A DNA stretch of 64,000 nucleotides, taken from the IMG/VR virus record IMGVR_UViG_3300021425_003554; one strand, 5' to 3'. Source of the DNA: a virus. Lineage: Duplodnaviria; Caudoviricetes. Under the pieces are notes generated by a model. The model was not told the origin of the DNA, did not search any database, and worked only from the letters and a program-made list of their open reading frames with translations. The position numbers and the translations under genes are program-made. Positions 38,974-57,032 of this stretch are shown piece by piece (position 1 is the first letter of the stretch; each line of letters opens with the position of its first letter).

Positions 38974-39852
38974 ATGTTGCTCGGACACAAAAACGATTTG
39001 GAAAATAATTCGTGGAAAGTTTTACCACATTTAAAAGATTGGTCATTAAATAAAAACAAAGACCTGTACACTCTTTACAGCAATATCTGTCCACATCAGG
39101 GTTCTTATTTTAAAGGAACACAAGGACAAAATACCAGACTATGTCCATATCATGGTTGGTCATTCACAAGCAAAGGAGAACCTGTTGGTTCCGGTAGCAC
39201 TTCACATTGGTGTAAGAATGAAGAGAATTTAGAAAATAAAGAAGTTTTTGAATGGAATGGCTATTTGTTTTCTGAAAAACACGACTTGCCCACAATAGAT
39301 TATATCAAGAGCGATCATCTTGTGTTGGAAGAAATGCGTGTAGATAATGTGAAGGCAAATTATATTGATATTGTTAATATTTTTTTAGACATGGATCATC
39401 TTCCAGTAGTTCATCCAAAAATATATGATCAACTATCTGTGGAAAAAGTTGAATGGGAGATTTTAGAAAATTCGTCAGTGCAGTATGCTCCCAACAACAA
39501 AGAAAAATTAGATAATGATTTTGGACAGACAATGCTACAAGAAGATCGAGAAAGGAAACACGGTGCCGCTTGGTTCTGTGTGTATCCATACACAATGATG
39601 GAATACTTTCCTGGTGCTTGGTTCAACACCGTCTGTAACCCAATCAACGATAAAGAAACCAATGTGACTGTTTACAAATACAGAGACACAAGATATTCCG
39701 AAAAGAATTGGGAGTTGAACTGTCACATATGGGAAACTGCCTGGAGCCAAGATAAAACACAATCCGAATCGGTTGTACCTCACTTTCAATCTAAATTTTT
39801 GGAAAAACAAAAAACACATTACATAAATTGGTTACGAAATAATGGATTATGA
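38974..39852 (+). CDS. Rieske non-heme iron oxygenase alpha subunit
   Basis: CPHQG...CPYHGW Rieske motif; NIFLDMDHLPVVH mononuclear Fe site. Confidence 0.9.
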   Translation: MLLGHKNDLENNSWKVLPHLKDWSLNKNKDLYTLYSNICPHQGSYFKGTQGQNTRLCPYHGWSFTSKGEPVGSGSTSHWCKNEENLENKEVFEWNGYLFSEKHDLPTIDYIKSDHLVLEEMRVDNVKANYIDIVNIFLDMDHLPVVHPKIYDQLSVEKVEWEILENSSVQYAPNNKEKLDNDFGQTMLQEDRERKHGAAWFCVYPYTMMEYFPGAWFNTVCNPINDKETNVTVYKYRDTRYSEKNWELNCHIWETAWSQDKTQSESVVPHFQSKFLEKQKTHYINWLRNNGL

Positions 39853-40759
39853 TTCTCTGCCAGGATACGGTAAAGATAATTGGATAAAATATAAATGGAA
39901 TAGAAGTTATGAAAATCCATATCCAAGCAATGATTTTGAATGTTTTTTAAGACCTCAAGGAAACAATAAAATTGTTCCTATAGATGTCGCCACAAGAAAC
40001 GCAGTATCAGACATACACGAAACTTACAATAAAAAAATCTATCTTGCCATGAGTGGGGGGATAGATAGCGAGTATGTTGCGGACATATTGGTCAAACAAA
40101 AAATTAAATTCACACCAATAGTGGTAACTCTCAACAAAGAGAACTCGTTAGACACCTGGTGGGCATTTCGTTGGTGCAAACAAAACAACATCGAACCTCA
40201 CGTGATCAACATCAATGAGGATCAGTATATTGATAATCTGATTGCTCATTCGAAAAAATATTGTAGCATAATGACAGCAGGTTCTGTCACTGTGAAATTT
40301 GTGTTGGATTATGTGAATGATCGCGATGGGATATTATTGACGGGGATGGGGTTTAATGAATTGTACATACCCGATCCTATCATGTACGAAGAGGAATACG
40401 ATGCCACACTAAAAGACAGCGAGGGAAATATGAAACACGGATACCTACAAAGTGAAGCAGATCTTGTAAAATTATTGATTGCCGATGGCAAACATCCAAT
40501 GACTGTTTTAAATTGGAATCCGGAAGTGACCTTGAGTTACATAGCCGCAAGAGATCCAAGAATGACAACAGAAGAAAACAGGTTCAAGATATTTAATTGC
40601 TCTCCCAGACCAAAGATCGCTCTACCCATGGACAGAAGAATCATTGATTCAAAAAAATACAAAAATTTTACAACACTGATAAGACACGTGGGCACAACAA
40701 AAAGTTATTATTTAGGAACAACAGAAAAATTAATTGATCTGTTGTCGAAAGGAATATAG
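39842..40759 (+). CDS. PP-loop (adenine nucleotide alpha hydrolase) family protein
   Basis: YLAMSGGIDSE; LLTGMG. Confidence 0.65.
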   Translation: MDYDSLPGYGKDNWIKYKWNRSYENPYPSNDFECFLRPQGNNKIVPIDVATRNAVSDIHETYNKKIYLAMSGGIDSEYVADILVKQKIKFTPIVVTLNKENSLDTWWAFRWCKQNNIEPHVININEDQYIDNLIAHSKKYCSIMTAGSVTVKFVLDYVNDRDGILLTGMGFNELYIPDPIMYEEEYDATLKDSEGNMKHGYLQSEADLVKLLIADGKHPMTVLNWNPEVTLSYIAARDPRMTTEENRFKIFNCSPRPKIALPMDRRIIDSKKYKNFTTLIRHVGTTKSYYLGTTEKLIDLLSKGI

Positions 40760-40975
40760 ATGTACAATTGGCTGAACTGGTGGGTACCCAACGAGAGAGT
40801 GTTCAATTATGTATTTTTCCTGTTCTTGGGGTTGTATCTGTTGCCAAGCATAATGGGAATACGGTTTACAATGTTGGGATATGTTGTAAATCTAATATGG
40901 CTTGATGCCTTATACTATTGGAGTTATAAAAAAGCAGAAGAATTAAAAGATAGATTCAAGGACGACGATGAATAA
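40760..40975 (+). CDS. small membrane protein
   Basis: two TM-like segments. Confidence 0.6.
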   Translation: MYNWLNWWVPNERVFNYVFFLFLGLYLLPSIMGIRFTMLGYVVNLIWLDALYYWSYKKAEELKDRFKDDDE

Positions 40976-41339
40976 ACATTTAGATATATCAATCTACATA
41001 GACACTTTAAAAAAAACAAACGAGAATCCTGTTGAAATAAAGTTTAATAACAACAAAGTCACAAATTATACAATGGAATACAATAACAAAAGAATCGTGG
41101 TCAAATTTAGTGTCCAAGAACCCACATCGATCACACAATCTATTTTAGAAGTAAAAAATGCTTATAAACAACATTATATTAACATCGCCGACATGACTAT
41201 AAATGATTTTAGTTGTTTATCTTATTTTTCTTTGTTAACTAATGATAAAAATGAAATTATTATGAAACCCGACAACGAAATTATCCTAAGGTGGAACAGT
41301 CCTTATTCTTACTATTTTCTCAAAAATTTTGATCTTTAA
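40968..41339 (+). CDS. hypothetical protein
   Basis: ORF. Confidence 0.55.
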   Translation: MNKHLDISIYIDTLKKTNENPVEIKFNNNKVTNYTMEYNNKRIVVKFSVQEPTSITQSILEVKNAYKQHYINIADMTINDFSCLSYFSLLTNDKNEIIMKPDNEIILRWNSPYSYYFLKNFDL

Positions 41340-42357
41340 TGTAGATCAAATCACTATAAATTGCTTTTTCAAAATTAATACTTTTTAATACTTTCATTCC
41401 TTCTTGATAAATGTCAAAAACTTCTTTATCATTTTCTTTGGCATATTTTTCCATAGATGCACATTCATAATTAACATGAGTTGTGGATAAAAAGGCATTT
41501 TGTCTTTTATAAGCAATATCATCGTTATCCGGCATAACAAGTCCTAGAGATTTTTTAAACTCTTTGTGATCAAACACAGGATTGTGCCCTTGAAATTTTT
41601 GTACTTTTTCATTATCTAAATCTGCGTGTTGTTCATAAAAAGCAATGGCTTTGTGTGTTTGCCAATTGAGAATTTCAAAATCGTCCCAAAATAGATTAAA
41701 AAATTGAGGTAGATAGTATGTGCAATATTCTTGTGTATCAAAATAAATTAAATACCATTTATTATCGTCAAGGTAAAGACGAGGATGATCGTTTCCAGTT
41801 ATATGAATTGTTTTGTCGTTGATTAATCTTTCTTTCTCTATTGGGTGAGTATCTAAAATATTATATCTCATATGTTTGCTAAATCTATCTGTGATAAAAG
41901 GTTGCCTAACCCAATCTTCTTTGTGTTTTAAATAAAAACTTTTGGCAGTCTCGTATCCCACATCCAATACTGTTATTTTACTATTGAATTTTTTATTGTA
42001 ATTTTGTATATCCTTCATTACTAATCTTTTTTCTTCTTTATACAATGAATAAGGATCATATAATTTGTCATAAAAAACTAGTTCATCAAATTCAATATTA
42101 TGACGATACGCACAATCTAATATTGTCTTGCTGTCTGTTCCTCCACTGTACCACAAGATCAACCTAATATCTTGTTGTTTTAATTTTAGAAGTCTGTTTT
42201 TTATTAATTCATCTAAAGTGATGTCTGGACAATTTTTAAAATCATAATTCGTCAATGCATCTGTTTTATAATAAAATTTACAATTAGGATCGGACTCCAC
42301 AGCGATCACTTTGCTTAGATGTTTTTTTCCATTAGCCGTCCAGTAAACATCAATCAT
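41320..42357 (-). CDS. PP-loop family protein
   Basis: LILWYSGGTDS; HITGNDHP. Confidence 0.65.
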   Translation of the reverse strand: MIDVYWTANGKKHLSKVIAVESDPNCKFYYKTDALTNYDFKNCPDITLDELIKNRLLKLKQQDIRLILWYSGGTDSKTILDCAYRHNIEFDELVFYDKLYDPYSLYKEEKRLVMKDIQNYNKKFNSKITVLDVGYETAKSFYLKHKEDWVRQPFITDRFSKHMRYNILDTHPIEKERLINDKTIHITGNDHPRLYLDDNKWYLIYFDTQEYCTYYLPQFFNLFWDDFEILNWQTHKAIAFYEQHADLDNEKVQKFQGHNPVFDHKEFKKSLGLVMPDNDDIAYKRQNAFLSTTHVNYECASMEKYAKENDKEVFDIYQEGMKVLKSINFEKAIYSDLIYIKDQNF

Positions 42358-42671
42358 GTAAAATCCTTTAATTTTTTATCTAATAATTTTTGCACGATAT
42401 TTTTGTTTAACTTTTTATTATGATACAGAACAACAAACCTACGATGCTGTCTGCTTAAATTCAAAGAACAATAAGATTGTCCAAATTTTGTTGTGTGCAT
42501 AGAGTGTTTTTTCCAATTGGATACTATTTTATTATCAACTTCGTACACCTGAGCCTGCTCCCATTTATCTATAAAATACACAGTTCTATAGTTCATACCC
42601 TTATAGTTGATTGATGGTATTTCAAACTCCCCCGGGGCCTGATGTACTAGCTCTAATATTATTTCGCTCAT
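42354..42671 (-). CDS. hypothetical protein, resembles the C-terminal part of 42668
   Basis: FIDKWEQAQVYEVDNKIVSNWK vs LNDRKPGQFMHIEDKIINSWK. Confidence 0.55.
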   Translation of the reverse strand: MSEIILELVHQAPGEFEIPSINYKGMNYRTVYFIDKWEQAQVYEVDNKIVSNWKKHSMHTTKFGQSYCSLNLSRQHRRFVVLYHNKKLNKNIVQKLLDKKLKDFT

Positions 42672-43282
42672 AACTTTATAATTTTTTTCTTTTTAAATTT
42701 TTCAAACTTCTTCGTTGGGATACCTGTTATTCTCAATATCCAACGAGGTTCATTTCCGCAGTTTCCTGCTCCGTGATATACTTCCTTGCTATTATAATAA
42801 AACATATCGCCTTGTTTCCAACTATTAATAATTTTGTCTTCGATGTGCATGAACTGTCCAGGCTTTCGATCATTCAACATTAATAACATTCTATGGTACT
42901 CTGGATTTTTAAACTCATTTGCTTTGACATATAATTCTTTTCTCTCTGCTATATCGTAATCGGGCATATGATCTATGTGTCTTAGTTGTATTTCGCCTTG
43001 TTCATATTTCATTATGATCATTTGAGTATTTTTCCAACCTAGCAATTTTCTTAGTTTCTCTAATGTTGGCATTTTAACAGGATCTATATAACCTCGAGAA
43101 TTTCTTTTTATACCAATCTTTTTGTAATCGATATTTGCTTGTCCCATTTTAAGTGACTTTTTATAATCTTTCTTTTCAAGCACTTGTTCCAAATATTCTC
43201 TGCCAAAGTTTGCCTTATAGTATGATAATTCTTTATCAAAATTGCCACCCACTACTTGAAATTTGTGTACTTTCTTATTCAT
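42668..43282 (-). CDS. 2OG-Fe(II)/cupin-like oxygenase
   Basis: HID motif, WKQGD, HGAGN, R.ILRITG. Confidence 0.7.
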   Translation of the reverse strand: MNKKVHKFQVVGGNFDKELSYYKANFGREYLEQVLEKKDYKKSLKMGQANIDYKKIGIKRNSRGYIDPVKMPTLEKLRKLLGWKNTQMIIMKYEQGEIQLRHIDHMPDYDIAERKELYVKANEFKNPEYHRMLLMLNDRKPGQFMHIEDKIINSWKQGDMFYYNSKEVYHGAGNCGNEPRWILRITGIPTKKFEKFKKKKIIKL

Positions 43283-43283
43283 T

Positions 43284-44012
43284 TTAATTTTTCTCCTTTA
43301 GAATTTTATCAAATAACTCGTTTACAACAATACCTATTAATATAATAATGAAAAAGACAGCATACATGGTAGATGTTTCCATTATGTCTTTGGCATCTGT
43401 CATGTAAGTGCCTATACCCCAATGACTGCCTATAGTGCCAAACACAACTTCTATACCTATCAATATCCTCCAACTCAAATTCCAACACGTTTTGAAATTA
43501 GCGACCAATAAAGGTTTTAAACTAGGAAGATAAACTTTTATTATACTTTCTATTACTCCCAATCTTAGATTGCCACAGTGTTTAGACCATTTTGTCAGAG
43601 ATTCCTCCAAGGAAACGATCATGTTTAATCCCACCATCCAAACGGTAGCAAAGATCATTAATAAAATTATTGTTAATTCATTCACTCCAAACACGAGCAT
43701 GAAGACCGGCAACCATGCAAAAGTTGGTGTGGGTTGTAAAGATGCACAAAGGCTCTTGAAGATAAATCTAAATTGCTTATTTAAAACAGATATTATAATC
43801 ACAACAAACAATAGACTCAATATCAAAAACCAAGTTTTAATTAGGAATAAAATACTGTCTGTTAAGGCACCTATAAATCTTATATCAGTTAATAATTGAG
43901 GATATTCGACTATCAATATATCGATGCCTGGTAAAATATAATTGTTACCTATAGACATTGATAGTAATTGCCAAACTATTAAAATAATTACAAAACTTTT
44001 TATACTATTCAT
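43284..44012 (-). CDS. ABC transporter permease (SsuC/TauC/NitT-like)
   Basis: P.P.FAWLP...FG; EAA-like loop; GIG.Y; start moved to MNSIK. Confidence 0.85.
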   Translation of the reverse strand: MNSIKSFVIILIVWQLLSMSIGNNYILPGIDILIVEYPQLLTDIRFIGALTDSILFLIKTWFLILSLLFVVIIISVLNKQFRFIFKSLCASLQPTPTFAWLPVFMLVFGVNELTIILLMIFATVWMVGLNMIVSLEESLTKWSKHCGNLRLGVIESIIKVYLPSLKPLLVANFKTCWNLSWRILIGIEVVFGTIGSHWGIGTYMTDAKDIMETSTMYAVFFIIILIGIVVNELFDKILKEKN

Positions 44013-44560
44013 TTTACTTTGATAACTTTTCCTAATTGTTTGGCTTCTGTTTGATTGTGTGTAACCCATAAAACTTTTTTGTTTGTGCTTTTAACTAATT
44101 TTTTAAATTCTCTCACTATTTCTTTTCCTGTGGCACCATCAACACCGCTCATGGGTTCGTCACATAACAATATTGATCTATCACTATATAGAGCTCTCAT
44201 CAGAGTAAACCGTTGTTTCTGACCAACTGAACACTCGTTGGGCATTTTATCCAAATGTTTTTCTAATTTTAATTTTTTAGCAATCTTGTTCCAATTTATA
44301 TCTGTAACCAGTCTTAAATTTTCCCTCACGGTCATCCAAGGAAATAGTTGTTCTGTATCTTGAAATACCCTGAAAATATTTGAATTGTCTATGATCTTTC
44401 CTGTGTATTCACAACCTCCGGAGATACATTCGAGAAGACTAGTTTTTCCAATACCCGATGCTCCCATCAATGTGTTTACTTCGCCAGGTCGTAGATGTAG
44501 AGTTATAGGTCTAAATAACTCTACATTGTTTCTGAGAGGAGCAACAGAAATCAATTGCAT
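44009..44560 (-). CDS. ABC transporter ATP-binding protein
   Basis: GASGIGKT Walker A, Q...LFPWMTVREN, CSVGQKQR, LLCDEP, VTH. Confidence 0.92.
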   Translation of the reverse strand: MQLISVAPLRNNVELFRPITLHLRPGEVNTLMGASGIGKTSLLECISGGCEYTGKIIDNSNIFRVFQDTEQLFPWMTVRENLRLVTDINWNKIAKKLKLEKHLDKMPNECSVGQKQRFTLMRALYSDRSILLCDEPMSGVDGATGKEIVREFKKLVKSTNKKVLWVTHNQTEAKQLGKVIKVK

Positions 44561-45495
44561 TATTTCAACGCCTCTGCACGATAGATCATTTTTGATATGT
44601 CGCCTTTGTTATCTTTGAGATATTCTATTTCGTATAAAAAATTATTAAAATACTCTGATCCCCTTAGATCGGAATGGAATATTGCTTGATTTTTTATGTG
44701 TCCCTTTTGTAGATACTCCGCAGTTGTGTCCATTTTGTCTTTCTGAATAAATTTTTCTAAAATTGTTATAGGATCCTTGTTATAATCACGTATAACTTCT
44801 ACCGCTGTTGTTATGAAAGCATAAGCCAAATCGGGATTCTGATCAACCCAATCTTTCCTTGTCCAATAGGCATTGTATGATCCTGCTATACCTTTTTCAA
44901 CATCACTTGTGGCAACTGTAACAAAACCCAGTTCGTCCTGTATCTTGTTCTGTAATGGTGCTCCGGTCATCACGCATTTCACGTCAGAAGATCCGGCCTG
45001 CAATATTTGCCATATTTGAGGTCTTTTCATGGTAATAAAATTTTCATCAAGTGCATAAGGATCTCCAAAGTGTTCTTTTGCCAACCACCTGATTGTGTGA
45101 TGTTCCAAGGTGTTTCTACCAGAAGTGACAATTTTTGTAGTTTTAACATCTTCCATTGTTTTGATGTCAGGTGTACATTGTAAGAAATACTTGTAATGCC
45201 CAATGGCAGATAGCAACAAACTTTGCTCAGGCATCTTATCATTTAAAACAATGAACGATGTGATAGACCCCACGTTGACATCTATCTGTTTATTCATCAG
45301 TAAGGAATTGCCTTTGATGGATGATTTTGTTGGTACTGTGTTTACTGTTATGCCTCGTGCTTCTAATCTCTCGATTATTTCATATCCTATATGCTGATGA
45401 GCACCAAAGGTGGGTTGAATGGCCATTGTAAATTCCTTGGCCGATATTGTTGTTGTTATGATAGATATCAACAACGTCAGAATCATTTTCTTCAT
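44560..45495 (-). CDS. ABC substrate-binding protein (NMT1/SsuA/TauA-like)
   Basis: signal peptide, periplasmic binding protein type II pattern, heads the ABC operon. Confidence 0.75.
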   Translation of the reverse strand: MKKMILTLLISIITTTISAKEFTMAIQPTFGAHQHIGYEIIERLEARGITVNTVPTKSSIKGNSLLMNKQIDVNVGSITSFIVLNDKMPEQSLLLSAIGHYKYFLQCTPDIKTMEDVKTTKIVTSGRNTLEHHTIRWLAKEHFGDPYALDENFITMKRPQIWQILQAGSSDVKCVMTGAPLQNKIQDELGFVTVATSDVEKGIAGSYNAYWTRKDWVDQNPDLAYAFITTAVEVIRDYNKDPITILEKFIQKDKMDTTAEYLQKGHIKNQAIFHSDLRGSEYFNNFLYEIEYLKDNKGDISKMIYRAEALK

Positions 45496-45660
45496 ATAAT
45501 ATTCTCCTAGTTTTAAGTTTAACTACTAGGTTTATTATACCATACGGAAGGGCGTTCTGTCAAACAGTAAAGAGTAAAACTCAAGCGTCCTGTTAATTCC
45601 GACGTCACTACTGGAGTGGCGCTGTAATCGTATTTATAGATTTGATAGATGTGTTAAAAA

Positions 45661-45879
45661 CTATCTACCTAGTTTTTTTGATCTACCCAACGGTAATTTT
45701 TGTAGTTTGTAGAACTCCTCACCACTTTTGGTAGTCCATTCCACTTCCACAAATTTTGCTTTGGAACCGGACTGATAAGATTTCACTGCTCGTCTGTAAC
45801 CCAGTGCTTCAACTTCTTTGACCTGTTCTTCAGCGGGTGCTGTTTTATCTGTAAAAATAAATTTTCTGTTTTTTGGCAT
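45661..45879 (-). CDS. hypothetical protein, leaderless
   Basis: TTGACA-N17-TAATAT-N6-ATG. Confidence 0.65.
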   Translation of the reverse strand: MPKNRKFIFTDKTAPAEEQVKEVEALGYRRAVKSYQSGSKAKFVEVEWTTKSGEEFYKLQKLPLGRSKKLGR

Positions 45880-45954
45880 AAACTTATATTAACATCCAAA
45901 AAAACAAGTGTCAACCTATTGACAAAATACCATTAATGTGTTTAAATACTAGCA

Positions 45955-46256
45955 TGGACGTTGATGGGTAGACAATACCTGGACAAGACGTCGGGGCAGT
46001 ACCGACCACCTCCACCACTCACTTGAAACACACACAATAGATTTGTGCTTTGAGGGGGTGAACTAGGATCGATTGACAGTTAAAACTATCTGGAGTTCAT
46101 CGTGATTATTCCGACGTAATCGGGTTATTTTATAAATGCTAATAAAAAAGCATTGGGATTTGCTGACCTAACAGTTGGTCAATCTCAACTAAGATTAGCG
46201 GCTTAATAGCCAACAATCTTGCGGGTTTGGGGACACCTGGGAACAGAAGTTCCCCC
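45955..46256 (+). ncRNA. ssrA: circularly permuted (two-piece) tmRNA
   Basis: acceptor piece: T-arm GUCGG-GGCAGUA-CCGAC, CACCUCC-A-CCA ending 46017; intervening 46018-46053; coding piece starts GGGGGUG at 46054 (G3.U pair); tag ORF 46138-46206 ANKKALGFADLTVGQSQLRLAA*; TTGACA at 45919; outer ends approximate. Confidence 0.93.
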
Positions 46257-46341
46257 AACATAATACGATCGTATAACTTATAATGTCGTATATTCATTTG
46301 TCATCCTAACCTTAAATATTTCATATTAAACAGGGGTGTGA

Positions 46342-46632
46342 ATGAAAAAACGTAGACTACCAAAGCACAAACAGGTTTGGATGAAAATAAGGAAAAAGGC
46401 TCCCAAAGTTCCCGACATAACCTGCCCGGTCATTGATGATGTGATTGACAAGATAACCAAAATCAAAGAACTGGAAAAAATAATATCTCCCGCTCAATTA
46501 AAAACATTGAAAAAGAAAATGGAAAGACTACGAACAATGAACGAGCAATTGAGAGAAAGCGGACAGTACTGGCATGACGAATGTCAAAAATTAGTGGACG
46601 ACGTTTTCAAACACGGAAAATATAAATTTTAA
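46342..46632 (+). CDS. coiled-coil hypothetical protein (PDITCP.ID motif)
   Basis: ORF. Confidence 0.65.
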   Translation: MKKRRLPKHKQVWMKIRKKAPKVPDITCPVIDDVIDKITKIKELEKIISPAQLKTLKKKMERLRTMNEQLRESGQYWHDECQKLVDDVFKHGKYKF

Positions 46633-48101
46633 TTTATTTTTACAACAGCAGTAGGAAAGTTATCTGCATATAGCAAGGTCACTTTGTTTGTGAATTTCAT
46701 TTGTAGTAGATCTGATGCAAATATCCAACCCGTTCTTTTTGCCACCTGTAATGCTTTCTTACAAAAAGATACATTATGAAGGTTGCTTTTTTTATTCACA
46801 TATAAATTTAAATTTTCAGGATCAAGTTTTGAAACGGGTATCCTTGCCAGAGTCCAAAAATTCATCCAATTGTTACCTTCTTTGACTATCAAGTGATCAA
46901 ATTTATCTCCAACCATTTGATGTATCATTTTTTTAATCATTGTTGCGTTCGCTACATCTAAAGGATCTATAGTTTCTGTGTCAATAAAAGGCAACATTGA
47001 CATCAATTCAAAATCAGAAATTGGAGTGAATTCGTTGCCTATGTCTTTATTATCATACCCTCTTTGTTTTGGTTGAAAAAGTGTTATGATTCCCCAGTCG
47101 TTGTCCCATTCCAAATCCCAATCTATGCCGTTTACAGTTTTTGTATAATAATTTTCATCGATAGGTATGCGTTTTCCGATACGTCTGATCCATTCCCATT
47201 TATGAAATAAAACAGAATTCCCTTCGTGGCCGATTATTACAGGTCTATCTTTGAAATGTTCGGCGACCTCATAAGATTGATAATTAAAAAATGGTTCTGG
47301 ATCTATATTGTTCGCCCATTTGATCAGCGTGTCCTCGTTCATTTTTAATTCGGTGATTTTCTTAAAACCAAGTGTTTTTTCAAAACTCAGGTCAAGGTTG
47401 TTGTCAAATTTCAGAATTGCACCTTCACTGAGAACGTGTGACTTATTGGGATTATGCTTATTCTCATGATGATTTTTGTATTCTAAAGTTGGATTGCTAA
47501 GACGGTCTTTCCAATATGTCTCGGCGTAAGGATTTTTATTCCACAAAGGCAAAAATATTTTTCCATCGACTATTATTGGTTCATAGTCAGGCTCCTGATT
47601 ATTCACGTATACGAGTTCTGTTTTACCTAGAGCGTTGTATTTGTGCAAATAAGCCATTAATAGTATCGAGTCTATGCCTTGGCTGTACATTAAAACTATG
47701 TCATCATGCGAATCAATAAAGTCTTTCATTTTTTTATCAAGTTTTTCTACTGCAAATTTCTCAAATTCTTCGTATGGTATCGTGTTTCGAGGTAGGTCTC
47801 TAACTTCAATCAACCCCTCACTGTTCAATTGAAAATTTTGATAAAATGTGCTAGATTCCCACCCATGGAATATGGTTTCTTTGATGTTGTGTTTTTCAAT
47901 GAACGGATAACATTGAAAATTTACTCTACCTTTAGTCTCGACAGTGGTATTTGTATCTTGCTCTATTTGTTCAAGTGTTTTTGCAGTGATGGTATTGTCT
48001 GGACCATATTTTAAAAATATCTCCCAGTTCCGGCCATTTTTCCTTGTCCAATTTTTTAATAAGTCTTTTGTGTTCTGATCGGTGGGAGTATAGGTTTTCA
48101 T
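46629..48101 (-). CDS. asparagine-synthetase-like PP-loop protein
   Basis: VLMYSQGIDSILL; IIGHEGN; P.SD.EL. Confidence 0.6.
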   Translation of the reverse strand: MKTYTPTDQNTKDLLKNWTRKNGRNWEIFLKYGPDNTITAKTLEQIEQDTNTTVETKGRVNFQCYPFIEKHNIKETIFHGWESSTFYQNFQLNSEGLIEVRDLPRNTIPYEEFEKFAVEKLDKKMKDFIDSHDDIVLMYSQGIDSILLMAYLHKYNALGKTELVYVNNQEPDYEPIIVDGKIFLPLWNKNPYAETYWKDRLSNPTLEYKNHHENKHNPNKSHVLSEGAILKFDNNLDLSFEKTLGFKKITELKMNEDTLIKWANNIDPEPFFNYQSYEVAEHFKDRPVIIGHEGNSVLFHKWEWIRRIGKRIPIDENYYTKTVNGIDWDLEWDNDWGIITLFQPKQRGYDNKDIGNEFTPISDFELMSMLPFIDTETIDPLDVANATMIKKMIHQMVGDKFDHLIVKEGNNWMNFWTLARIPVSKLDPENLNLYVNKKSNLHNVSFCKKALQVAKRTGWIFASDLLQMKFTNKVTLLYADNFPTAVVKIN

Positions 48102-48472: not shown

Positions 48473-48624
48473 TTGACATATTTTGATAATGTGTTAAAAT
48501 TAAATTAACAAGACATATTAAAGTAAATGTCTATAAACTTGTTCCGTCGGATCTCGCTTATATTCGGCGGAACACACGACTCCACACCCTTTGGGTGTAA
48601 TTGAGTCAACATACAGGAGATGAT
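48473..48624 (+). promoter_or_regulatory. GGTTGAC-class promoter plus three-hairpin 5' leader
   Basis: TTGACA-N16-TAAAAT; hairpins AGACAT/ATGTCT, 48541-48573, 48578-48607. Confidence 0.6.
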
Positions 48625-49731
48625 ATGGAAAACAAAGTGAAAACTCTCAATCAAGTGGTTGAGGAATTCTACAAAGACGGCGAAGATGAAGTAGCCAATT
48701 TCAAAACAAGGTTAGAAACAGCCAGAGATAGGCTGAAAGAATTACAAAAAGATCCTGAAATGATATTACCGCAAGGTATTTCACAAGTGGAGATCAATGA
48801 CGATCTATGTTTCAATTACTCTGTACAACGAGACTTGAGACCTTCACACGTGGTTCGTATATGTGAAAAATTTGATCCCCGAGTGGTAAGACCCGCATCA
48901 GCAGTCAAAAGAGACGGAAAATACTTTTTGTTTGATGGACAACACACGTCTGTCGCATTATCGGTATTGGGTTTCAAGGCAGTGCCCATGACCTATGTTG
49001 AGACATCACATCAATCTTTTGATGCCATCGCATTTGAGATATTGAATGACACAGGTATATTGAGGGCAGGCACAGAAGAGATACACAGGGGTCTATTACA
49101 CAGATGGCACAACGATGTCCATTCTGAAAACGATAGGAATAATCCTAGGGTAAAAAATGCCTACACTGTTGATACCCTATTCAAAAAATGTGCTATAGAT
49201 TTAGAACCCAAGCGAGTGAGAAAGAGCCCGGGCAAGTGTGGTCCAAACAAACACTATTTCTCACATTTCGATTATGCATACAAAGGTTTAGAAATGACCG
49301 GCGATGCTGATGTTCTTGAAAAGATATTGTTGGGAATCAAACAATATTACGGAGATGAGGACGGAGGAGAAATCAATCAAGGTATCTACATAGGACTTGT
49401 AAAAATGTACGCATTAGCAAAAGAAGACGGTGCAACTAAATTTCTACCCAAAGATTGGATAGATAAAATTCTATCGGCACTGATCGATATATGTGGAAGG
49501 AATGCACAAGGAATACATTCTGCCTCTAAAAAGCAATGGCAACATTGCCGAGGCACATCATGGGACGCACCAGTGGCAATGAGTACTCTTATGAGAGAAG
49601 CATATCTTTCACACGCATCAGAAGATGATCAGTTCAATCCACCACACGAACCTAAGGTGTCCATGGGTTTATTGAAAAACGACATCTGTGCAGAGTTTGT
49701 TCCTTATTGTAAAATGAAAAACAATGTTTGA
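48625..49731 (+). CDS. ParB/sulfiredoxin-superfamily (DUF6551/DGQH-type) protein
   Basis: VQRDL...V.RI...FD; YFLFDGQHT; start moved to MENKV after AGGAG. Confidence 0.7.
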   Translation: MENKVKTLNQVVEEFYKDGEDEVANFKTRLETARDRLKELQKDPEMILPQGISQVEINDDLCFNYSVQRDLRPSHVVRICEKFDPRVVRPASAVKRDGKYFLFDGQHTSVALSVLGFKAVPMTYVETSHQSFDAIAFEILNDTGILRAGTEEIHRGLLHRWHNDVHSENDRNNPRVKNAYTVDTLFKKCAIDLEPKRVRKSPGKCGPNKHYFSHFDYAYKGLEMTGDADVLEKILLGIKQYYGDEDGGEINQGIYIGLVKMYALAKEDGATKFLPKDWIDKILSALIDICGRNAQGIHSASKKQWQHCRGTSWDAPVAMSTLMREAYLSHASEDDQFNPPHEPKVSMGLLKNDICAEFVPYCKMKNNV

Positions 49732-50266
49732 ACTAGATAGATATATGCGATTAGATCGCGAATTGGTAGGTAAGTTACAATTTAAATCTGCCAACAAAGT
49801 ATCGCTTGAGGCAGATGTAGAAATTCTAAATAGATTCAAAAACGATTTATTAAGTGAAAATGTCAACAGAGAAGTCAAAGGCAAGTACTTTTATTTTTTA
49901 CAGAGATACTTGAGGGACACACAAAAGGCACGATGTCCTGGACAGTCCCATTATGTGGCGGAAGGTGCCAATGAGGGCAAAGCACATCTCGAGCATCCAA
50001 TACCACAAAATAGGATACTACAAGCATACCTGGAAGGTCATATATCTGAGATTGAAGCAATCCATATGCCTTTGTGCCTTATATCAGATGCTGACAAACA
50101 CATCCTGGAAGGAGAATGGCAATACAATGCCACATGGCAGTATCCATTTCGAAGATATAAAATGGCAGGATTTACCAAAACAATTAAAAATTTAAGAGGA
50201 GAACCTATTGATTTAGACTTGTGGTCTATTGAAAATCATTTTACAATGTTAGGAGTAATAAAATGA
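49724..50266 (+). CDS. putative HNH-like nuclease (EHxxP)
   Basis: HLEHPIP...LCLI...PF.RY..AG; overlaps the upstream stop. Confidence 0.5.
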   Translation: MFELDRYMRLDRELVGKLQFKSANKVSLEADVEILNRFKNDLLSENVNREVKGKYFYFLQRYLRDTQKARCPGQSHYVAEGANEGKAHLEHPIPQNRILQAYLEGHISEIEAIHMPLCLISDADKHILEGEWQYNATWQYPFRRYKMAGFTKTIKNLRGEPIDLDLWSIENHFTMLGVIK

Positions 50267-51549
50267 AACCCTGGAAAATCATACAAGAACTGGAAGCGGA
50301 CAATTCGAGACTGAAGAAAGAAGCCATCATAAGGCGTGAGTCAGACGCGGAGAACATCAGGTTCTTCAACGGCGTTGGTGCGGCCTTGGATGGATTCAGG
50401 ACTTTTGGTGTACAGAAGGTGCCCGTATCAAAGAAGGATGGCACAGGAATCACACAGACCGAATTCGATGATGTCTTGAGAAGATTGGAAGACAGAACTC
50501 TCACAGGCAATGAAATGCGAGATGTGATCCAAGACCTTTGTGATAGATCAAACATGGAAGAATGGAACGACTGGTATCGTAGGATCTTGATAAAAGATCT
50601 AAGATGTGGGGTCACACACAAGACAATCAATAAGCATTCTACGATGAAGGTTCCTGTGTTCGAGTGTATGTTGGCAGACGACAGCAAGAAGCACGAAAAG
50701 AAGATGACAGGTGAAGTGTATGTTGAACCCAAACTGGATGGAGTCAGAGTGATAACAATATGCGACGTGGACAAGGACGAGGTTAAGATGTTCTCAAGAA
50801 ACGGCAAGGAATTAGTCAACTTTCCAAAGATACTTCAACAATTTGACGAGATGCTGGACCAGATGTCCGAGAGCATGGTGTTTGACGGCGAGGTCATGAG
50901 TGACGACTTCCAGACCCTGATGAGGGAGATACACAGGAAGGGTGGTGCCAAGACCGATGACGCGGTGCTTAACCTGTTTGATTGCCTGCCACTTGAACAC
51001 TTCAAGGAGGGTGGATCAAATAACACTTTGGGTCAAAGAAAGGATTGGTTGGACGGATATGATTATGGTCCAAACATATCCAAAGTAGAATATGTAAAAA
51101 TAGATTTAGATGACGACGATGGACAGAAGCAGTTCGCGGATTATAATAGATTATGTATAGACAAGGGATTTGAAGGTATAATGGTCAAACCCATCACAGG
51201 GATCTATGAGTGTAAGAGATCCAGCCTCTGGTTAAAAGTAAAACCTTTTATAGAAGTTTCTTTAACTGTCAAAGATGTTGAAGAAGGCACGGGTAGAAAT
51301 ATTGGTAAACTGGGTGCTCTCATTGTTGAAGGTACCGACGATGGTAAATTTATAAAAACTAATGTGGGATCTGGATTGACAGACCAGGATCGTGAAACAT
51401 ATTGGCAACACAAAGATAAATTATTAGGACAGGTTGTTGAAATTAGAGCAGATGCAATAACCCAAAATCAGGACACGACTAGGGAATATAGTCTACGTTT
51501 TCCTAGATTTTTAAGATTTAGAGGATTTGAAATAGGAGAAAAAATGTAA
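50263..51549 (+). CDS. lig: ATP-dependent DNA ligase
   Basis: EPKLDGVR, FSRNGK, FDGE, EGIMVK, W.KVK, GSG, SLRFPRF. Confidence 0.95.
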   Translation: MKPWKIIQELEADNSRLKKEAIIRRESDAENIRFFNGVGAALDGFRTFGVQKVPVSKKDGTGITQTEFDDVLRRLEDRTLTGNEMRDVIQDLCDRSNMEEWNDWYRRILIKDLRCGVTHKTINKHSTMKVPVFECMLADDSKKHEKKMTGEVYVEPKLDGVRVITICDVDKDEVKMFSRNGKELVNFPKILQQFDEMLDQMSESMVFDGEVMSDDFQTLMREIHRKGGAKTDDAVLNLFDCLPLEHFKEGGSNNTLGQRKDWLDGYDYGPNISKVEYVKIDLDDDDGQKQFADYNRLCIDKGFEGIMVKPITGIYECKRSSLWLKVKPFIEVSLTVKDVEEGTGRNIGKLGALIVEGTDDGKFIKTNVGSGLTDQDRETYWQHKDKLLGQVVEIRADAITQNQDTTREYSLRFPRFLRFRGFEIGEKM

Positions 51550-52571
51550 TGAAAAATATTGGAATTATAGGTTCTGGTAAAATTGGATCAACAATATATG
51601 CTTATCTAAAAACAACAGATCATAATATTAGTATAGCGGACAAAATACAAAAAAATGAAGTACAAAAGATAGATGTATTCAACAAAGACGACCTGGAATC
51701 CTTTGTGTCTAAACAAGACATATTGGTCTCAGGAGCACCTTATGATGCTAATCCTTTGATAGCAGATGCCTGTAATAAATTCAATGTGGCATATTTTGAT
51801 CTCACAGAAGACACAGCAGTGACAGATCACATCAAGACTTTCAAATCAGACACATTCATGATGCCGCAGTGTGGTTTTGCTCCGGGAGCCATTAATATTA
51901 TTGCAAGTAATCTTATCAAGCAATTTGAAAGAGTGGACAAAGTTAATATGAGAGGTGGAGCATTGCCTAAGTATCCAAACAATGCCATGGCCTATTATCT
52001 CACATGGAGTACGTCCGGATTGATCAACGAATACGTAAATGATTGTGATGTTATTAGAAATAACAAACACATCAAAACACTACCATTGGACGGTTTAGAA
52101 ACTTTATATGTTGATGGTGATAGATATGAGGCTTTTAACACATCTGGTGGAGCGGCCTCTATGTGTGAAACATTTTCTGACACAGTCAAAACACTTGACT
52201 ACAAAACTATAAGATATCCAGGACATCATGCCAGCATGAAATTCTTGTTGGACGATTTGAATTTAAAACACAACAAAGAAAAATTTATTGATCTATTTGA
52301 TCAGGAAGTGCCTTACACTACCGCTGATGTCATTGTGATGTTCGTTAGTGTGGTCGGCATCAAGAATGGTATGCTACAAGAAGTAACGTATAGTAAAAAA
52401 ATTTACGGAGATGAAAACTTCAGTGCCATACAGAGAACCACTGCATCCGGGGCCTGTGCGGTAGTCCTGGCCTATGCCGAAGGCAAATTAAAAGGCAAAG
52501 GATTTCAACGTCAAGAAAATATACCGTTTGATGTATTCACTGGTAATAAATTTGGAGAACTTTATGGATAA
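51549..52571 (+). CDS. saccharopine dehydrogenase-family enzyme (lysine 6-dehydrogenase-like)
   Basis: GIIGSGKIG; YFDLTED; CGFAPG; WS..GLINEY; EAFNTSGG; YKTIRYPGH; AIQRTTA. Confidence 0.85.
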   Translation: MKNIGIIGSGKIGSTIYAYLKTTDHNISIADKIQKNEVQKIDVFNKDDLESFVSKQDILVSGAPYDANPLIADACNKFNVAYFDLTEDTAVTDHIKTFKSDTFMMPQCGFAPGAINIIASNLIKQFERVDKVNMRGGALPKYPNNAMAYYLTWSTSGLINEYVNDCDVIRNNKHIKTLPLDGLETLYVDGDRYEAFNTSGGAASMCETFSDTVKTLDYKTIRYPGHHASMKFLLDDLNLKHNKEKFIDLFDQEVPYTTADVIVMFVSVVGIKNGMLQEVTYSKKIYGDENFSAIQRTTASGACAVVLAYAEGKLKGKGFQRQENIPFDVFTGNKFGELYG

Positions 52572-53967
52572 ACAAAAATATAACGTGATTGTCAACAGGG
52601 CCATGGACGCCCAGATGTTATGGAAAAATGTTCCTGCTCCGAAAAGAGGAGAACTAATCAGAATATTTGGCAACAAATTAAGAGAAAATTTACAAGAGTT
52701 AGGAGAACTGGTCACAAAGGATTCCAAAAAAATTATTGCGGAAGGAATAGGAGAGGTACAAGAAGCGATAGATATGTGTGATTTCGGGGTGGGATTGTCA
52801 AGACAACTTTACGGATTGACTATGCCATCGGAAAGACAAGATCACAAGTTAATGGAAGTATGGCATCCACTCGGAGTTGTTGGAGTCATATCTGCTTTTA
52901 ATTTTCCTTGTGCTGTATGGTCATGGAATCATATACTTTCTATAGTGTGTGGAAATTCTGTTGTATGGAAACCATCACCCCTCAGTATGAACATCACTCT
53001 AAAATGTAAAGAGTTATGGGATGAGTCAATTGTTGAATTTTTAAAAAACGTGACAGTGAAACATACACAAGGTGATAGATTTCATTTACAAGATCTATTG
53101 GGCATAGTCGAAGGCGGAAAAGAAGCCGCCGAATGGATAGCAGACGATCCTAGAATAAAATTAGTAAGTGCCACAGGTTCCACAGAGATGGGCAAAGCAT
53201 TGGCTCCTAGAGTTTCGGCAAGATTAGGAAAATCTTTATTAGAATTGGGTGGTAACAATGCAATGATAGTTTCACAACACGCAAACTTGAATCTTGCGAT
53301 TAGAGCCATAGTATTCAGTGCTGTGGGAACTTGCGGACAAAGATGTACAACATTGAGAAGATTGATTGTTAACGAAAACATTTACGATACACTACTTGAA
53401 AAAATTAAATCTGCATACAGCAGTTTGACAATAGGTGATCCAATGGATCCTAAAAATTTAGTGGGACCTTTGATCAATCAACAATCTGTTGACAGAATGC
53501 AAGAAGTTTTAAAAAAATGTCGAGAAAGAGGACATATTGTACACGGTGGAGAAGTTATCGAAGGTTGCTATGTAAAACCTGCCATAGTGGAAGTCAAAGA
53601 GCAGGACGAGTTGGTACACAACGAAACTTTTGCTCCTATACTGTACATTTTGAAGTATATCACTCTAGATAATGCTATCAGAAAACACAACATTGTTCCA
53701 CAGGGATTAAGTTCTTGTATTTTTACAGATAATCTGCAAGAAGCAGAAAAATTTATATCTGTGCTGGGATCAGACTGTGGTATTGTAAATATTAATATAG
53801 GTCCTTCAGGTGCAGAAATTGGTGGAGCATTTGGTGGAGAGAAAGACACAGGCGGTGGACGAGAAAGTGGTTCGGATGCATGGAAACAATATATGCGTAG
53901 ATCAACCATCACTGTAAATTATGGAGAAGATTTGCCTTTGGCACAAGGCATAACTTTTGATGTATAA
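52564..53967 (+). CDS. ALDH7-family aldehyde dehydrogenase (AASA/P6C dehydrogenase-like)
   Basis: GEVQEAIDMCDF.VGLSRQLYG.T..SER; SAFNFPCAVW; LELGGNNA; GTCGQRCTTLRR; SDCGIVN.NIG.SGAEIGGAFGGEK.TGGGRESGSDAWKQYMRR. Confidence 0.92.
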   Translation: MDKQKYNVIVNRAMDAQMLWKNVPAPKRGELIRIFGNKLRENLQELGELVTKDSKKIIAEGIGEVQEAIDMCDFGVGLSRQLYGLTMPSERQDHKLMEVWHPLGVVGVISAFNFPCAVWSWNHILSIVCGNSVVWKPSPLSMNITLKCKELWDESIVEFLKNVTVKHTQGDRFHLQDLLGIVEGGKEAAEWIADDPRIKLVSATGSTEMGKALAPRVSARLGKSLLELGGNNAMIVSQHANLNLAIRAIVFSAVGTCGQRCTTLRRLIVNENIYDTLLEKIKSAYSSLTIGDPMDPKNLVGPLINQQSVDRMQEVLKKCRERGHIVHGGEVIEGCYVKPAIVEVKEQDELVHNETFAPILYILKYITLDNAIRKHNIVPQGLSSCIFTDNLQEAEKFISVLGSDCGIVNINIGPSGAEIGGAFGGEKDTGGGRESGSDAWKQYMRRSTITVNYGEDLPLAQGITFDV

Positions 53968-54572
53968 TGAATGTATATCCAAAAGGTTTTTATCAAGATC
54001 CAAATTTGTATTTTGATATAAACAAATTACAATCAGCAGTACAAGAAGTCGATAGTCGTGTGGCTAGACAATCCCCGCTTGGTAAAAGAGACATCAATGC
54101 AATTTGTTTAACACAGATACCCGGTGATCCAAATTCCATAACCGGAGGCAACGTGAGAGGCTACTTTTGGACAAAGCCAGATCACACGGGGATAGAAGTT
54201 ACTCGAGAAAAACCCATAGACGAGACCAAGTATTCCGAGTTTGTCAAATTGTTTGAAGACACTTACTTCAAAGAAGTGTATGATACACTATCTACAAAGT
54301 ATCAATTGGGTAGAATACGACTGCTTTGGAAACTGCCAAGAACAACATTGAGCTGGCATAGAGATCCCGAACCCAGACTGCACATACCTATCATAACCAA
54401 TCCCGGTGCTCACATGGTTGTTGAGTCAGTGAACTTTCATATGCCTGCAGACGGACACGTATGGATAACCAATAACACAAAATATCATAATGCATTCAAC
54501 GGTGGAGAAGAAGATAGAGTTCATCTAGTTGCCACTGTATTAAATTTTGACTTGAGTTTGTTTGGAGATTGA
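53967..54572 (+). CDS. aspartyl/asparaginyl beta-hydroxylase-like cupin oxygenase
   Basis: LSWHRD...RLHIPIITN...H.AFNGG..DRVHLV. Confidence 0.75.
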   Translation: MNVYPKGFYQDPNLYFDINKLQSAVQEVDSRVARQSPLGKRDINAICLTQIPGDPNSITGGNVRGYFWTKPDHTGIEVTREKPIDETKYSEFVKLFEDTYFKEVYDTLSTKYQLGRIRLLWKLPRTTLSWHRDPEPRLHIPIITNPGAHMVVESVNFHMPADGHVWITNNTKYHNAFNGGEEDRVHLVATVLNFDLSLFGD

Positions 54573-54573
54573 T

Positions 54574-54714
54574 ATGAAATATTTTGGAAAATATCTAGAT
54601 ATGTTTGTATCAAATAAAACAAAAAAAACCAAAAAACTAAAAACAAAAAAGAAAAAAACCAAAAGAAGAAGAAGACGAGAAATATCCGATGACGATTGGA
54701 GCGGAATAGTCTAA
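54574..54714 (+). CDS. small Lys/Arg-rich peptide (46 aa)
   Basis: manual translation; GGAG SD. Confidence 0.45.
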   Translation: MKYFGKYLDMFVSNKTKKTKKLKTKKKKTKRRRRREISDDDWSGIV

Positions 54715-54718
54715 CAAA

Positions 54719-54877
54719 ATGAAAAGTTATAAAATAGAAATCAAGGCAGGTGATAAAGTGGAAGTTGGACGTTTCCGTAATGTACAGGCCACAATCAAAA
54801 GCATCGAAACAGATATTAATGGTCAACCCGTGATTGTTACCAACCAAAGAAAATACTTTATCTATAGAAAAGTATGA
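54719..54877 (+). CDS. small KOW/SH3-like protein (52 aa)
   Basis: manual translation IKAGDKVEVGRF. Confidence 0.5.
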   Translation: MKSYKIEIKAGDKVEVGRFRNVQATIKSIETDINGQPVIVTNQRKYFIYRKV

Positions 54878-55569
54878 AAACTTTATTGTTAAACGGATGT
54901 AGTTTTACAGAATGTTGGACACCGTCAAAATATTTTTTAGATAATTTAAATTGTGACACCTATGTTAATATTGGCAAAGTTGCTACCAGTTTCCAAAGGA
55001 CTTGTAGATCCACTATAGAATGGATAGCACAAAACGGTGACCCAAGTTTTATCATTATACCTATAACTTTTAGCCATCGTTGGGAATTGGCTCTTTATAA
55101 AGAAGAAGATACGATAGATGGAGCGTGGACTCCATTACAAATATCAGATCTCATCAATGAGAAACATGAACTACATGGAACAAATTTTAAAGATTTAAAA
55201 AAACTTATTGACGATTATTACAAAATCATTCCTACAATAAAAACCTATTGGGATAAGCAATTTACTGAGATTATAATGTTGGCTGGTTGGTTGGACAGCA
55301 AAAATATACCTTATTTGATGTTTGATATGTGCAATGAATTTGATATGAAACATCTAAAAGGTTACAAAGGATTTTCAAAATTAGATATTATTAAAACCAA
55401 TAATAAAATAATCAATCTATTTAATTTTTGTGGTAATAGATATATGTGGAGCACCATGCCAAACAAAGACCAAATAGATTTTAATATACATCATGCACCT
55501 GAACAATATATTGAATTAGAAAAATATCTATTAAATTACCTTAAAAAAATATCAATAACGGCTGTTTAA
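54874..55569 (+). CDS. SGNH/GDSL-like hypothetical protein
   Basis: LLLNGCSF block I; C-terminal HH.PE. Confidence 0.55.
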   Translation: MKTLLLNGCSFTECWTPSKYFLDNLNCDTYVNIGKVATSFQRTCRSTIEWIAQNGDPSFIIIPITFSHRWELALYKEEDTIDGAWTPLQISDLINEKHELHGTNFKDLKKLIDDYYKIIPTIKTYWDKQFTEIIMLAGWLDSKNIPYLMFDMCNEFDMKHLKGYKGFSKLDIIKTNNKIINLFNFCGNRYMWSTMPNKDQIDFNIHHAPEQYIELEKYLLNYLKKISITAV

Positions 55570-55733
55570 ACCAATTACAGCCATAGACAGATATTATAAT
55601 TGTGTTATAATACAAGTAAATACAACGTATGCAGAAAAAAACTGTTCAGCCTGCGTTTATCAAAACTCACACCTGGTTCAAAAACACCTCGTCAAATTTT
55701 GACAGAAAAGAAAAAATAAGTTAAAATAACATT

Positions 55734-57032
55734 ATGGAACTTGCAATTATTTTATCTTCTGGTATCCTGACCGGAATACTGATAGGATTGTTTCCTGTAT
55801 TTCCTATATATTTGGGTGCATTTCTGTTGTATGTTACTGCCACAATTTGGTCACCCGAACAAATGTTATTGTTCTGGGCAGTCAGCAGTATAGGATCTCA
55901 ATTTTTTTGCAGTGTATCAACCATCACATTGGGTATTCCTGGAGATGCGAGTAGCCTGATTTATGTCAATGATGTTAAGAAGTTATCACTATCGGAAAGA
56001 AATAGTTTGCTATGGCAAACGTCGCGAGGTAGTCTGATAAGCGCCTTCTCGGCACTGTGTTTGGTATGGATACTTTATACTACCTATACAACATCAGGAA
56101 TGCGTTTCATGGGAGGAGTTGAAATAAAATTTTTTTTGTTGTACACAGTGATATTATTTCTAATATTCACTAGCAATAAAAAACTAATGACGGCTTTGAT
56201 AGCATTCATGGCTATTTTCATCGCTCCACAAAACAATTATGCTTTGCCAATAAGTTGGTACTCTGCTTCCATATTTTTACAACACACAACTTTCTTTATG
56301 TTGGTACTTGCAATGGTTGTTATTCCTGATGTTGTCTCATATGACACTGGATTTATCAAAAACGATAAAGAAAAATTTGAACCAAAGAAAACAAAACTGC
56401 CATGGTGGTTGGTAGTAAAAAACACCATAGTAGGCTGTGTGGTCAGTTTGATTCCTGGTCCATCAGCAGAACTATCAGCGGCAACTGCCTATCATACAAC
56501 CAGATCCAATACCAATGACAAGATTATAGCGGCCGAGACTGCCAACAATCCCGGAGTGATCATGATGCTGTTGCCTTTTTTTCTTCTCGGATTGCCTTTT
56601 ACTCCAAGCAGTATTATTGTGAGCAACATAATGGATATCAAAGTGGTAAATGTTATTGAATTGGCCAAATCGTCAAGCACCGTACTGCCCGGAGTGTCGG
56701 TGTTGGATAGTATAATAATACTCGCATTGGTAACTGTTGTTTTTTATTACTTGTTGAGTCTTAGATTTATAAACTTTTATACCTCTATGGTAAAACTAGC
56801 ACATAGCCAATTAAAAATAATACTATTGATGTTGGTGTTAGGTATGATTTACTTGGATGTATCTATACAAGAAATATCTTGGATAAGTTATTTGTCCTTA
56901 CTACTAGGATATACAATTATTGGTTTTATAATGAAAAGATATAACATCAATGCCATGCCTTTTATATTCATATACTTGTTGGGAGATGTGATAATATGGA
57001 CAACCATGCAGGTTTATCTGATCCATTTTTAA
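55734..57032 (+). CDS. tripartite tricarboxylate transporter large subunit (TctA-like)
   Basis: GILIGLFP; LGIPGDASS; IPG.SA; AAETANN; LGLPFTPSS; about 11-12 TM. Confidence 0.8.
   Translation: MELAIILSSGILTGILIGLFPVFPIYLGAFLLYVTATIWSPEQMLLFWAVSSIGSQFFCSVSTITLGIPGDASSLIYVNDVKKLSLSERNSLLWQTSRGSLISAFSALCLVWILYTTYTTSGMRFMGGVEIKFFLLYTVILFLIFTSNKKLMTALIAFMAIFIAPQNNYALPISWYSASIFLQHTTFFMLVLAMVVIPDVVSYDTGFIKNDKEKFEPKKTKLPWWLVVKNTIVGCVVSLIPGPSAELSAATAYHTTRSNTNDKIIAAETANNPGVIMMLLPFFLLGLPFTPSSIIVSNIMDIKVVNVIELAKSSSTVLPGVSVLDSIIILALVTVVFYYLLSLRFINFYTSMVKLAHSQLKIILLMLVLGMIYLDVSIQEISWISYLSLLLGYTIIGFIMKRYNINAMPFIFIYLLGDVIIWTTMQVYLIHF

Follow-up and report, generated by a model that had tools for sequence, protein, structure and literature searches.

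A Circularly Permuted Two-Piece tmRNA Gene on Marine Phage DNA With a Long Predicted Tag Lacking the ANDN Motif

Introduction

A circularly permuted transfer-messenger RNA (tmRNA) gene lies at positions 45955–46257 (+) of the viral DNA analysed here, a stretch of 64,000 nucleotides referred to as the window, and its predicted tag of 22 residues appears to be a peptide that is conserved while the RNA scaffold changes around it. The gene was called by ARAGORN and two Rfam models, has the fold and a conserved reading frame of a tmRNA, and was found solely on phage-type DNA. We put the probability that it is a functional phage ssrA in the circularly permuted two-piece form at roughly 0.8. The new part is the tag, a widespread variant found here on phage DNA only. 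Phage-borne two-piece tmRNAs of the alpha type have already been published, and the gene as such is not new because such tmRNAs were reported by Buchholz et al. (2022; PMC9004378) in the Methylophilales (OM43) phage Melnitz, which carries a two-piece alpha-type ssrA, and in 17 of 47 pelagimyophage-like contigs, which contain permuted tmRNAs. Of 133 distinct tmRNAs that this study counted in deposited phages, 53 were two-piece, and 50 of these came from marine or aquatic phages; as far as its text and part 1 of its Table S1 go, tags are not discussed and none is given (PMC9004378).

Structure of the tmRNA Gene

ARAGORN reported a single gene in the whole window, a tmRNA labelled as permuted at 45922–46297 with the tag ANKKALGFADLTVGQSQLRLAA. 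Furthermore, both covariance models of Rfam 15 matched: RF01849 (alpha_tmRNA) with 112.1 bits (E 9e-30; cut-off 50) and RF04321 (tmRNA_permuted) with 93.4 bits (cut-off 47), so that the check by ARAGORN or covariance model proposed in the preliminary description was positive with all three. The permuted order is evident from the position of the ACCA end (46014–46017) upstream of the GGGGGUG strand (46054–46060). The tag frame has the features of a tmRNA frame, i.e., an alanine resume codon (GCU), a hydrophobic end (LAA), and in-frame stops (TAA TAG). The parts of the gene are as follows.

45919–45924 (+): −35 hexamer TTGACA, read from the sequence; invariant in 7 of 7 aligned relatives
45942–45947 (+): −10 hexamer TTAAAT, 17 nt after the −35 hexamer; preceded by TGT, as in the extended −10 type
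45955–46017 (+): acceptor piece, the 3′ half of the tRNA-like domain with an encoded CCA end; the RF04321 match starts at 45955
45990–46006 (+): T-arm, stem GUCGG/CCGAC and loop GGCAGUA; 5 of 5 stem pairs kept in 32 of 32 relatives
46007–46017 (+): 3′ acceptor strand CACCUCC (46007–46013), discriminator A, and CCA, from the sequence and Rfam
46018–46053 (+): 36-nt spacer, too short for a gene; differs in sequence from the conserved spacer of most relatives
46054–46257 (+): coding piece with 5′ acceptor strand, D-loop analogue, helix 2 return strands, tag frame, and terminal hairpin
46138–46203 (+): tag frame of 22 codons, ANKKALGFADLTVGQSQLRLAA, with resume codon GCU at 46138 (ARAGORN)
46204–46209 (+): tandem stops TAA TAG, from the sequence and ARAGORN; TAA TAA in most relatives
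46229–46255 (+): terminal hairpin GGGGAC/GUUCCCC with the loop motif ACCUGGNAACAGAA, which fits the RF01849 consensus

All elements named in the preliminary description (T-arm, CACCUCC-A-CCA, 36-nt spacer, GGGGGUG, and helix 2) were recovered in place, and its reading of a two-piece tmRNA borne on phage DNA is sustained by ARAGORN, the Rfam scores, the covariation, and the phage setting. The RF01849 alignment of the coding piece extends to 46257. The 5′ acceptor strand GGGGGUG forms seven pairs with CACCUCC, the G3·U pair included, and in helix 2 GGGUAG (45966–45971) can pair with CUAUCU (about 46086–46091).

Covariation among relatives is far above chance. In an RNAalifold analysis of 32 distinct aligned relatives, 29 of 55 consensus pairs carry compensatory changes, which affect four of the five T-stem pairs and every part of helix 2. 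The G3·U acceptor pair is present in all 32 relatives, and acceptor pairs 5 and 6 switch jointly (GGGGGUG/CACCUCC, GGGGUGG/CCACUCC, and GGGGCUG/CAGCUCC); the helix 2 strands, T-arm, and acceptor strand of the acceptor piece all covary. The stem of the terminal hairpin covaries likewise, with GGCCC/GGGCC, GCCCC/GGGGC, and GCAAC/GUUGC among relatives.

The TTGACA and TTAAAT hexamers would constitute a sigma-70-type promoter of the tmRNA's own. The −10 hexamer can also be read one base on as TAAATA, and TAAATA or TAATTA is kept there in relatives. A simple promoter scan did not list the tmRNA promoter because its −10 hexamer deviates from TATAAT.

The spacer would be expected, on the Caulobacter model, to be removed during maturation. 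In most relatives, it is strongly conserved (alignment columns 84–125, e.g., L127:3371-3685:-) and contains UUGGUGG, the exact complement of the acceptor-piece 3′ end CCACCAA, so that the CCA end of the precursor could, judging from these sequences, be hidden in a hairpin. The subgroup of the window has a different spacer (46018–46053) with a small internal hairpin only.

The sequence is present in estuary, salt-marsh, and seawater metagenomes and in six salt-marsh metatranscriptome runs. Contigs from four salt-marsh metatranscriptome libraries cover 45988–46231, 45988–46331, and 45988–46552 and bridge the spacer; they may represent at most the precursor, or else carried-over DNA. Their starts at 45987/45988 reflect sequence that is common to relatives.

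Comparison With Bacterial and Phage tmRNAs

The two-piece tmRNA of Caulobacter crescentus and other Alphaproteobacteria was reportedly described by Keiler, Shapiro and Williams in 2000. The gene in the window shares with this type the gene order, the G3·U pair, a GGCRGUA T-loop, helix 2, the ACCUGGCAACAGAA motif, and an Ala-Ala end, whereas it is phage-borne, its tag has about twice the length and no ANDN, and the T-loop in its lineage is often canonical. Among the matches listed, the alpha-type GGCAGUA loop occurs in 47 of 84 same-tag metagenome copies and canonical UUCGAAU-like or UGCAAUU-like loops in the other 37. Because the loop type varies within one tag lineage, the T-loop is not a host marker. 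The preliminary description had taken the GGCAGUA loop as a pointer to the host, and this claim fails, since same-tag relatives mix loops and since the alpha-type ssrA of Melnitz goes with a host, OM43, that is not an alphaproteobacterium (PMC9004378). Caution is therefore advisable in predicting hosts from the tmRNA type or the T-loop.

In both Melnitz and the window, a marine T4-like myophage carries a permuted alpha-type tmRNA under an early-type promoter of its own, and RF01849 gives similar scores (106.7 bits in Melnitz vs 112.1 bits in the window). The two differ in the tag, which has 14 residues and is of the ANDN type in Melnitz and has 22 residues with an ANKK start in the window. ARAGORN gave the tags ANDNYVPVDYALAA for Melnitz, ANFNEYALAA for HTVC008M, and, as called, GEDNFALAA for Mosig, and the tag of the window resembles none of these cultured relatives' tags. 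The ssrA of Melnitz has a glutamine riboswitch in its 3′ domain and a gp33-like gene downstream (PMC9004378); within 45500–46700, Rfam showed no glutamine riboswitch of the Melnitz/Mosig type even with E values of up to 10 allowed.

Conservation of the Tag

The tag starts with ANKK where a host-type tag has A-N-D-N, and ends in the Ala-Ala of the ClpX type, as RLAA in every copy. Its net charge is +2, compared with about +1 in common variants and −2 in ANDNEMALAA. The preliminary view that the tag is longer and more basic than host-type tags and lacks their ANDN is upheld by the ANKK start and the 22 residues.

Relatives were collected by two scans. The first was blind to the tag and scanned IMG/VR for an alpha-type T-arm with acceptor end, which matched at least 120 contigs. 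Among the matches listed, ARAGORN called 73 tmRNAs, 48 of which have tags starting with ANDN, most of them of 9–15 residues, and the tag AN[KRT][KR]ALGFADLT...LRLAA was found in five contigs and in the window's twin. Between the window and these five copies, six sites differ in codons 1, 2, and 5–12, and all six differences are synonymous. The second scan searched IMG/VR and marine metagenomes with a degenerate pattern covering codons 1–12 and detected the tag in 40 contigs of the former and at least 120 of the latter, with GOS and Tara assemblies among the matches listed. Every one of 39 distinct viral sequences has a frame open for exactly 22 codons (25 in one subgroup), and the 117 uncut metagenome copies among the matches listed have, without exception, one of 22 or 25 codons; the longer form contains 9 additional nt inserted in frame. 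These copies all end in [LM]RLAA, in most of them followed by two stops. Metagenome copies among the matches listed comprise 44 peptide variants. The start is AN[KTR][KRS] in relatives; V13, G/S14, L/M18, R19, L20, A21, and A22 are conserved, and codons 13, 14, 20, and 22 vary synonymously (e.g., V13 as GTT or GTC and G14 as GGT or GGC), and residues 15–17 vary freely.

This pattern bears on a rival explanation, which we consider unlikely, namely that the phage tmRNA only adds rescue capacity during infection and that its LAA tag has drifted, serves no purpose by itself, and is broken down in the ordinary way. Residues 5–14 and 18–22 are held over at least 44 peptide variants while the scaffold and the T-loop type change, the differences in codons 1, 2, and 5–12 of the tag-blind set are synonymous throughout, and a drifted tag of 22 residues would not be expected to persist in more than 150 contigs. 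The free variation at residues 15–17 is compatible with drift, as is the ordinary nature of the RLAA ending, which other alpha-type viral-contig tags share among the matches listed. Furthermore, simple upkeep of the translation machinery is one role that has been proposed for phage tmRNAs (Buchholz et al., 2022; PMC9004378). A peptide under selection accords better with the held residues, and because selection would act on the peptide, the tag is probably read by something.

Neither of the other two frames is open in any copy, the stop stands at the same codon in all 22-codon copies and is often doubled, the single indel of 9 nt keeps the frame, synonymous changes fall at conserved residues, and the frame opens with a GCN alanine codon after UAAAU and closes with LAA, as in tmRNA tags. 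These features argue for a translated peptide and make it quite improbable that the conservation of the 66 nt reflects RNA structure or RNA–protein contacts and that the real peptide is shorter or lies in another frame, although RNAalifold gives an invariant 5-bp stem AAUGC/GCAUU across the resume codon and more invariant pairs inside the tag region, the Rfam alignment places its consensus stop one base out of frame at 46169–46171, and a third-position excess is lacking in the codons that the search pattern does not fix. Variable sites at codon positions 1, 2, and 3 number 6/4/14 over the whole tag and 7/5/8 in the codons left free by the search pattern. The excess at third positions was accordingly rejected as a proof of coding, being partly produced by the search pattern, and because that count is inflated, the case for coding rests on the tag-blind comparison, on the indel that keeps the frame, and on the constant position of the stop. 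The out-of-frame consensus stop had also suggested that a 10-codon tag with an AA-stop end became the long tag when 1 nt was inserted; this idea was discarded, as no short-frame intermediate was found and all relatives are long-framed.

Another tag, of 23 residues, characterises a sister lineage of tmRNAs from this phage group, ANAFKPEVTVP[MV]S[VI]FAD[QA]ELVAA (L054:4516-4893 and L066:71-448). The sister lineage has a similar scaffold, and its tag is likewise long and without ANDN, contains FAD, and ends in AA; the nrdA product of L066 is 83% identical. By contrast, the first two thirds of the tag are unrelated, and only the AN start, FAD, and the AA end are common to both.

Occurrence of the Tag in Phages and Bacteria

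Because tblastn found no match to the tag in 50,697 deposited phage records, no deposited phage genome carries it. The tmRNA sequence had no BLAST match among deposited phages, and the tag string had no match in a literature search.

Among bacteria and archaea, the tag pattern was scanned in one genome for each of 185,579 species and was found on two contigs, both of one metagenome-assembled genome (MAG), the species representative "Rickettsiales bacterium MED657" (NZHE01000009.1 and NZHE01000011.1; L158, L159, L161, and L162). This MAG has three tmRNA hits. Its own ssrA scores 185 bits and lies in sequence of 30% GC; the long-tag copies score 108–110 bits and lie in sequence of 36–38% GC. One of the two long-tag contigs equals an IMG/VR viral contig in length and tag. 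Probably, therefore, both are phage DNA binned with a bacterial genome, whether through contamination of the bin or, as they may weakly hint, through a link between virus and host; the public MAG is flagged here as containing probable phage contigs. The preliminary description had named occurrence of the same tag in host chromosomal ssrA genes as what would remove its novelty, and none was found among the 185,579 species genomes.

The family of MED657, which appears SAR11-like, was sampled with 41 genomes of 0.8–1.7 Mb, with about 30% GC in the loci checked. An alpha_tmRNA hit is present in 32 of the 41, most at about 200 bits. Of 30 ssrA loci fetched from the family, 23 yielded a tag with ARAGORN, always of the ANDN type with 9–10 residues, and 18 of these are ANDNEMALAA; the papers searched did not contain the tag string of this candidate host group. 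SspB was found in 29 of the 41 genomes, and smpB and sspB are both in the MED657 MAG. The chromosomal ssrA of this family, a possible host group by virtue of the two co-binned contigs, is likewise of the alpha-type two-piece form; it differs in its score of about 200 bits on RF01849, its length of about 295 nt, and its 9–10-residue ANDN tags. The comparison with the ANDNEMALAA family rests on co-binning and pelagimyophage kinship, both of them weak grounds.

Phage Setting and Neighbouring Genes

The window has about 38% GC and encodes a class Ia ribonucleotide reductase (RNR), an ATP-dependent ligase, an exonuclease, a tail fibre with an Mtd_N domain, and a virion protein; the setting is that of a large marine T4-like phage. 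Nucleotide matches among the 50,697 deposited phages are confined to RNR genes. In a megablast search over 24 kb, the sole match besides an 85-nt stretch was the RNR gene of pelagimyophage Mosig (73%), and a wider search added that of HTVC008M (70%). These two Pelagibacter phages are the closest by identity, and cyanophage matches cover more of the query at 66–69% identity. Near-identical viral contigs are present in IMG/VR (G001/L131, L126, and L153). Because CheckV gives a completeness of 16–39% for contigs of 39–93 kb, the genome should be well over 200 kb.

Members of the lineage form a single phage group; their nrdA proteins are 82–84% identical, and homologues of the tail fibre, the exonuclease, a ParB-like pair, and a 96-aa open reading frame (ORF) lie close to their tmRNA. 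Phage neighbours (nrdA, tail fibre, exonuclease, and the ParB-like pair) were found in 74 of 90 metagenome loci of at least 3 kb among the matches listed. That the gene is not a phage gene in use, and is instead either a host ssrA remnant acquired where a prophage attached or part of a bacterial contig that was misassigned, is hardly credible in view of this conserved phage neighbourhood, of two halves, a promoter, and a tag frame that are all complete and conserved, and of the absence of the tag pattern from host chromosomes, even though many of the at least 120 viral contigs with the tRNA-like pattern lack a full ARAGORN tmRNA and could be attachment-site fragments, three related contigs are classed as provirus by IMG/VR, and the window is rich in metabolic genes.

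The metabolic genes form two blocks that flank the tmRNA (38974–45563 and 51549–57032), which is unusual for a phage. They encode a full ABC importer with oxygenase and PP-loop enzymes, an aldehyde dehydrogenase, and a TctA transporter. The provirus class of the three related contigs may be an effect of such host-like metabolic genes.

The preliminary description had noted that smpB is lacking from the window, and this stands: tblastn searches for SmpB and SspB in the window and in related loci gave chance-level hits only. Neither smpB nor sspB was found in metagenome loci of at least 3 kb among the matches listed, and neither SmpB nor ATE_C in five larger related contigs that are 19–39% complete. 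Because of this completeness, smpB may still lie elsewhere in the phage genome.

Two further neighbours were observed. A basic, helical ORF of 96 aa (46342–46632, +), without a Pfam or PHROG family, accompanies the tmRNA. Its homologues lie within about 1 kb of the tmRNA in 32 of 44 viral loci and in 71 of 120 metagenome loci among the matches listed; they either follow the tmRNA closely on its strand or precede it in divergent orientation. The Atlas clusters of the ORF are virus-only. It was considered as a gp33-like coactivator and rejected as such, as it has no similarity to the Melnitz protein. At 48601–50266 (+), a ParB-like protein of 376 aa (weak DUF6551, just under the Pfam cut-off) is encoded with an overlapping partner of 180 aa. 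This pair is near the tmRNA in 24–25 viral loci and in 29–46 metagenome loci among the matches listed.

Proposed Function and Perspective

By analogy with what has been established for the two-piece tmRNA of Caulobacter (reviewed in PMC3985003), a single precursor containing the acceptor piece, the 36-nt spacer, and the coding piece would be transcribed from the sigma-70-type promoter of the gene and cut by host enzymes into two RNAs, which would be held together by the 7-bp acceptor stem with its G3·U pair and by the long helix 2. Charging would be carried out by host alanyl-tRNA synthetase, and host SmpB and EF-Tu would deliver the molecule to stalled ribosomes. Translation would then resume at the GCU codon at 46138 and append ANKKALGFADLTVGQSQLRLAA to the unfinished protein.

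ClpX reads a C-terminal ending of the ALAA type, whereas the N-terminal part is bound by SspB, which increases the delivery of tagged proteins to ClpXP and probably does so in Alphaproteobacteria as well (PMC3985003). The C-terminal LAA of the present tag would serve as the usual ClpXP-type ending, and its start and middle (AN-KK-ALGFADLT-VG) would take the place of the host ANDN motif. It is plausible, judging from the peptide, that the tag is handled by a different adaptor or protease; a partner other than the usual adaptor of the host may recognise it, and proteins rescued by the phage tmRNA would follow a disposal route, or be disposed of at a rate, unlike those of host-tagged proteins. 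A more specific proposal is tentative, with the odds against it: the ALGFADLT core and the basic start may form a degron or handle that is peculiar to these phages and read by a dedicated partner, either phage-encoded or a host factor other than SspB. The product of the 96-aa ORF (46342–46632) is one candidate for this partner.

If such a dedicated partner exists, these phages would possess a private branch of trans-translation, in which phage-rescued proteins are sorted apart from host-tagged ones, e.g., to escape competition for SspB–ClpXP or to feed another protease. We know of no experiments behind the question of why phages carry tmRNA genes. The present lineage makes the role of a phage tmRNA testable, as its peptide persists through changes of the RNA in more than 150 marine contigs, and a tag that lacks the motif of the usual adaptor yet has a protease-type ending predicts a measurable difference in the handling of tagged proteins.
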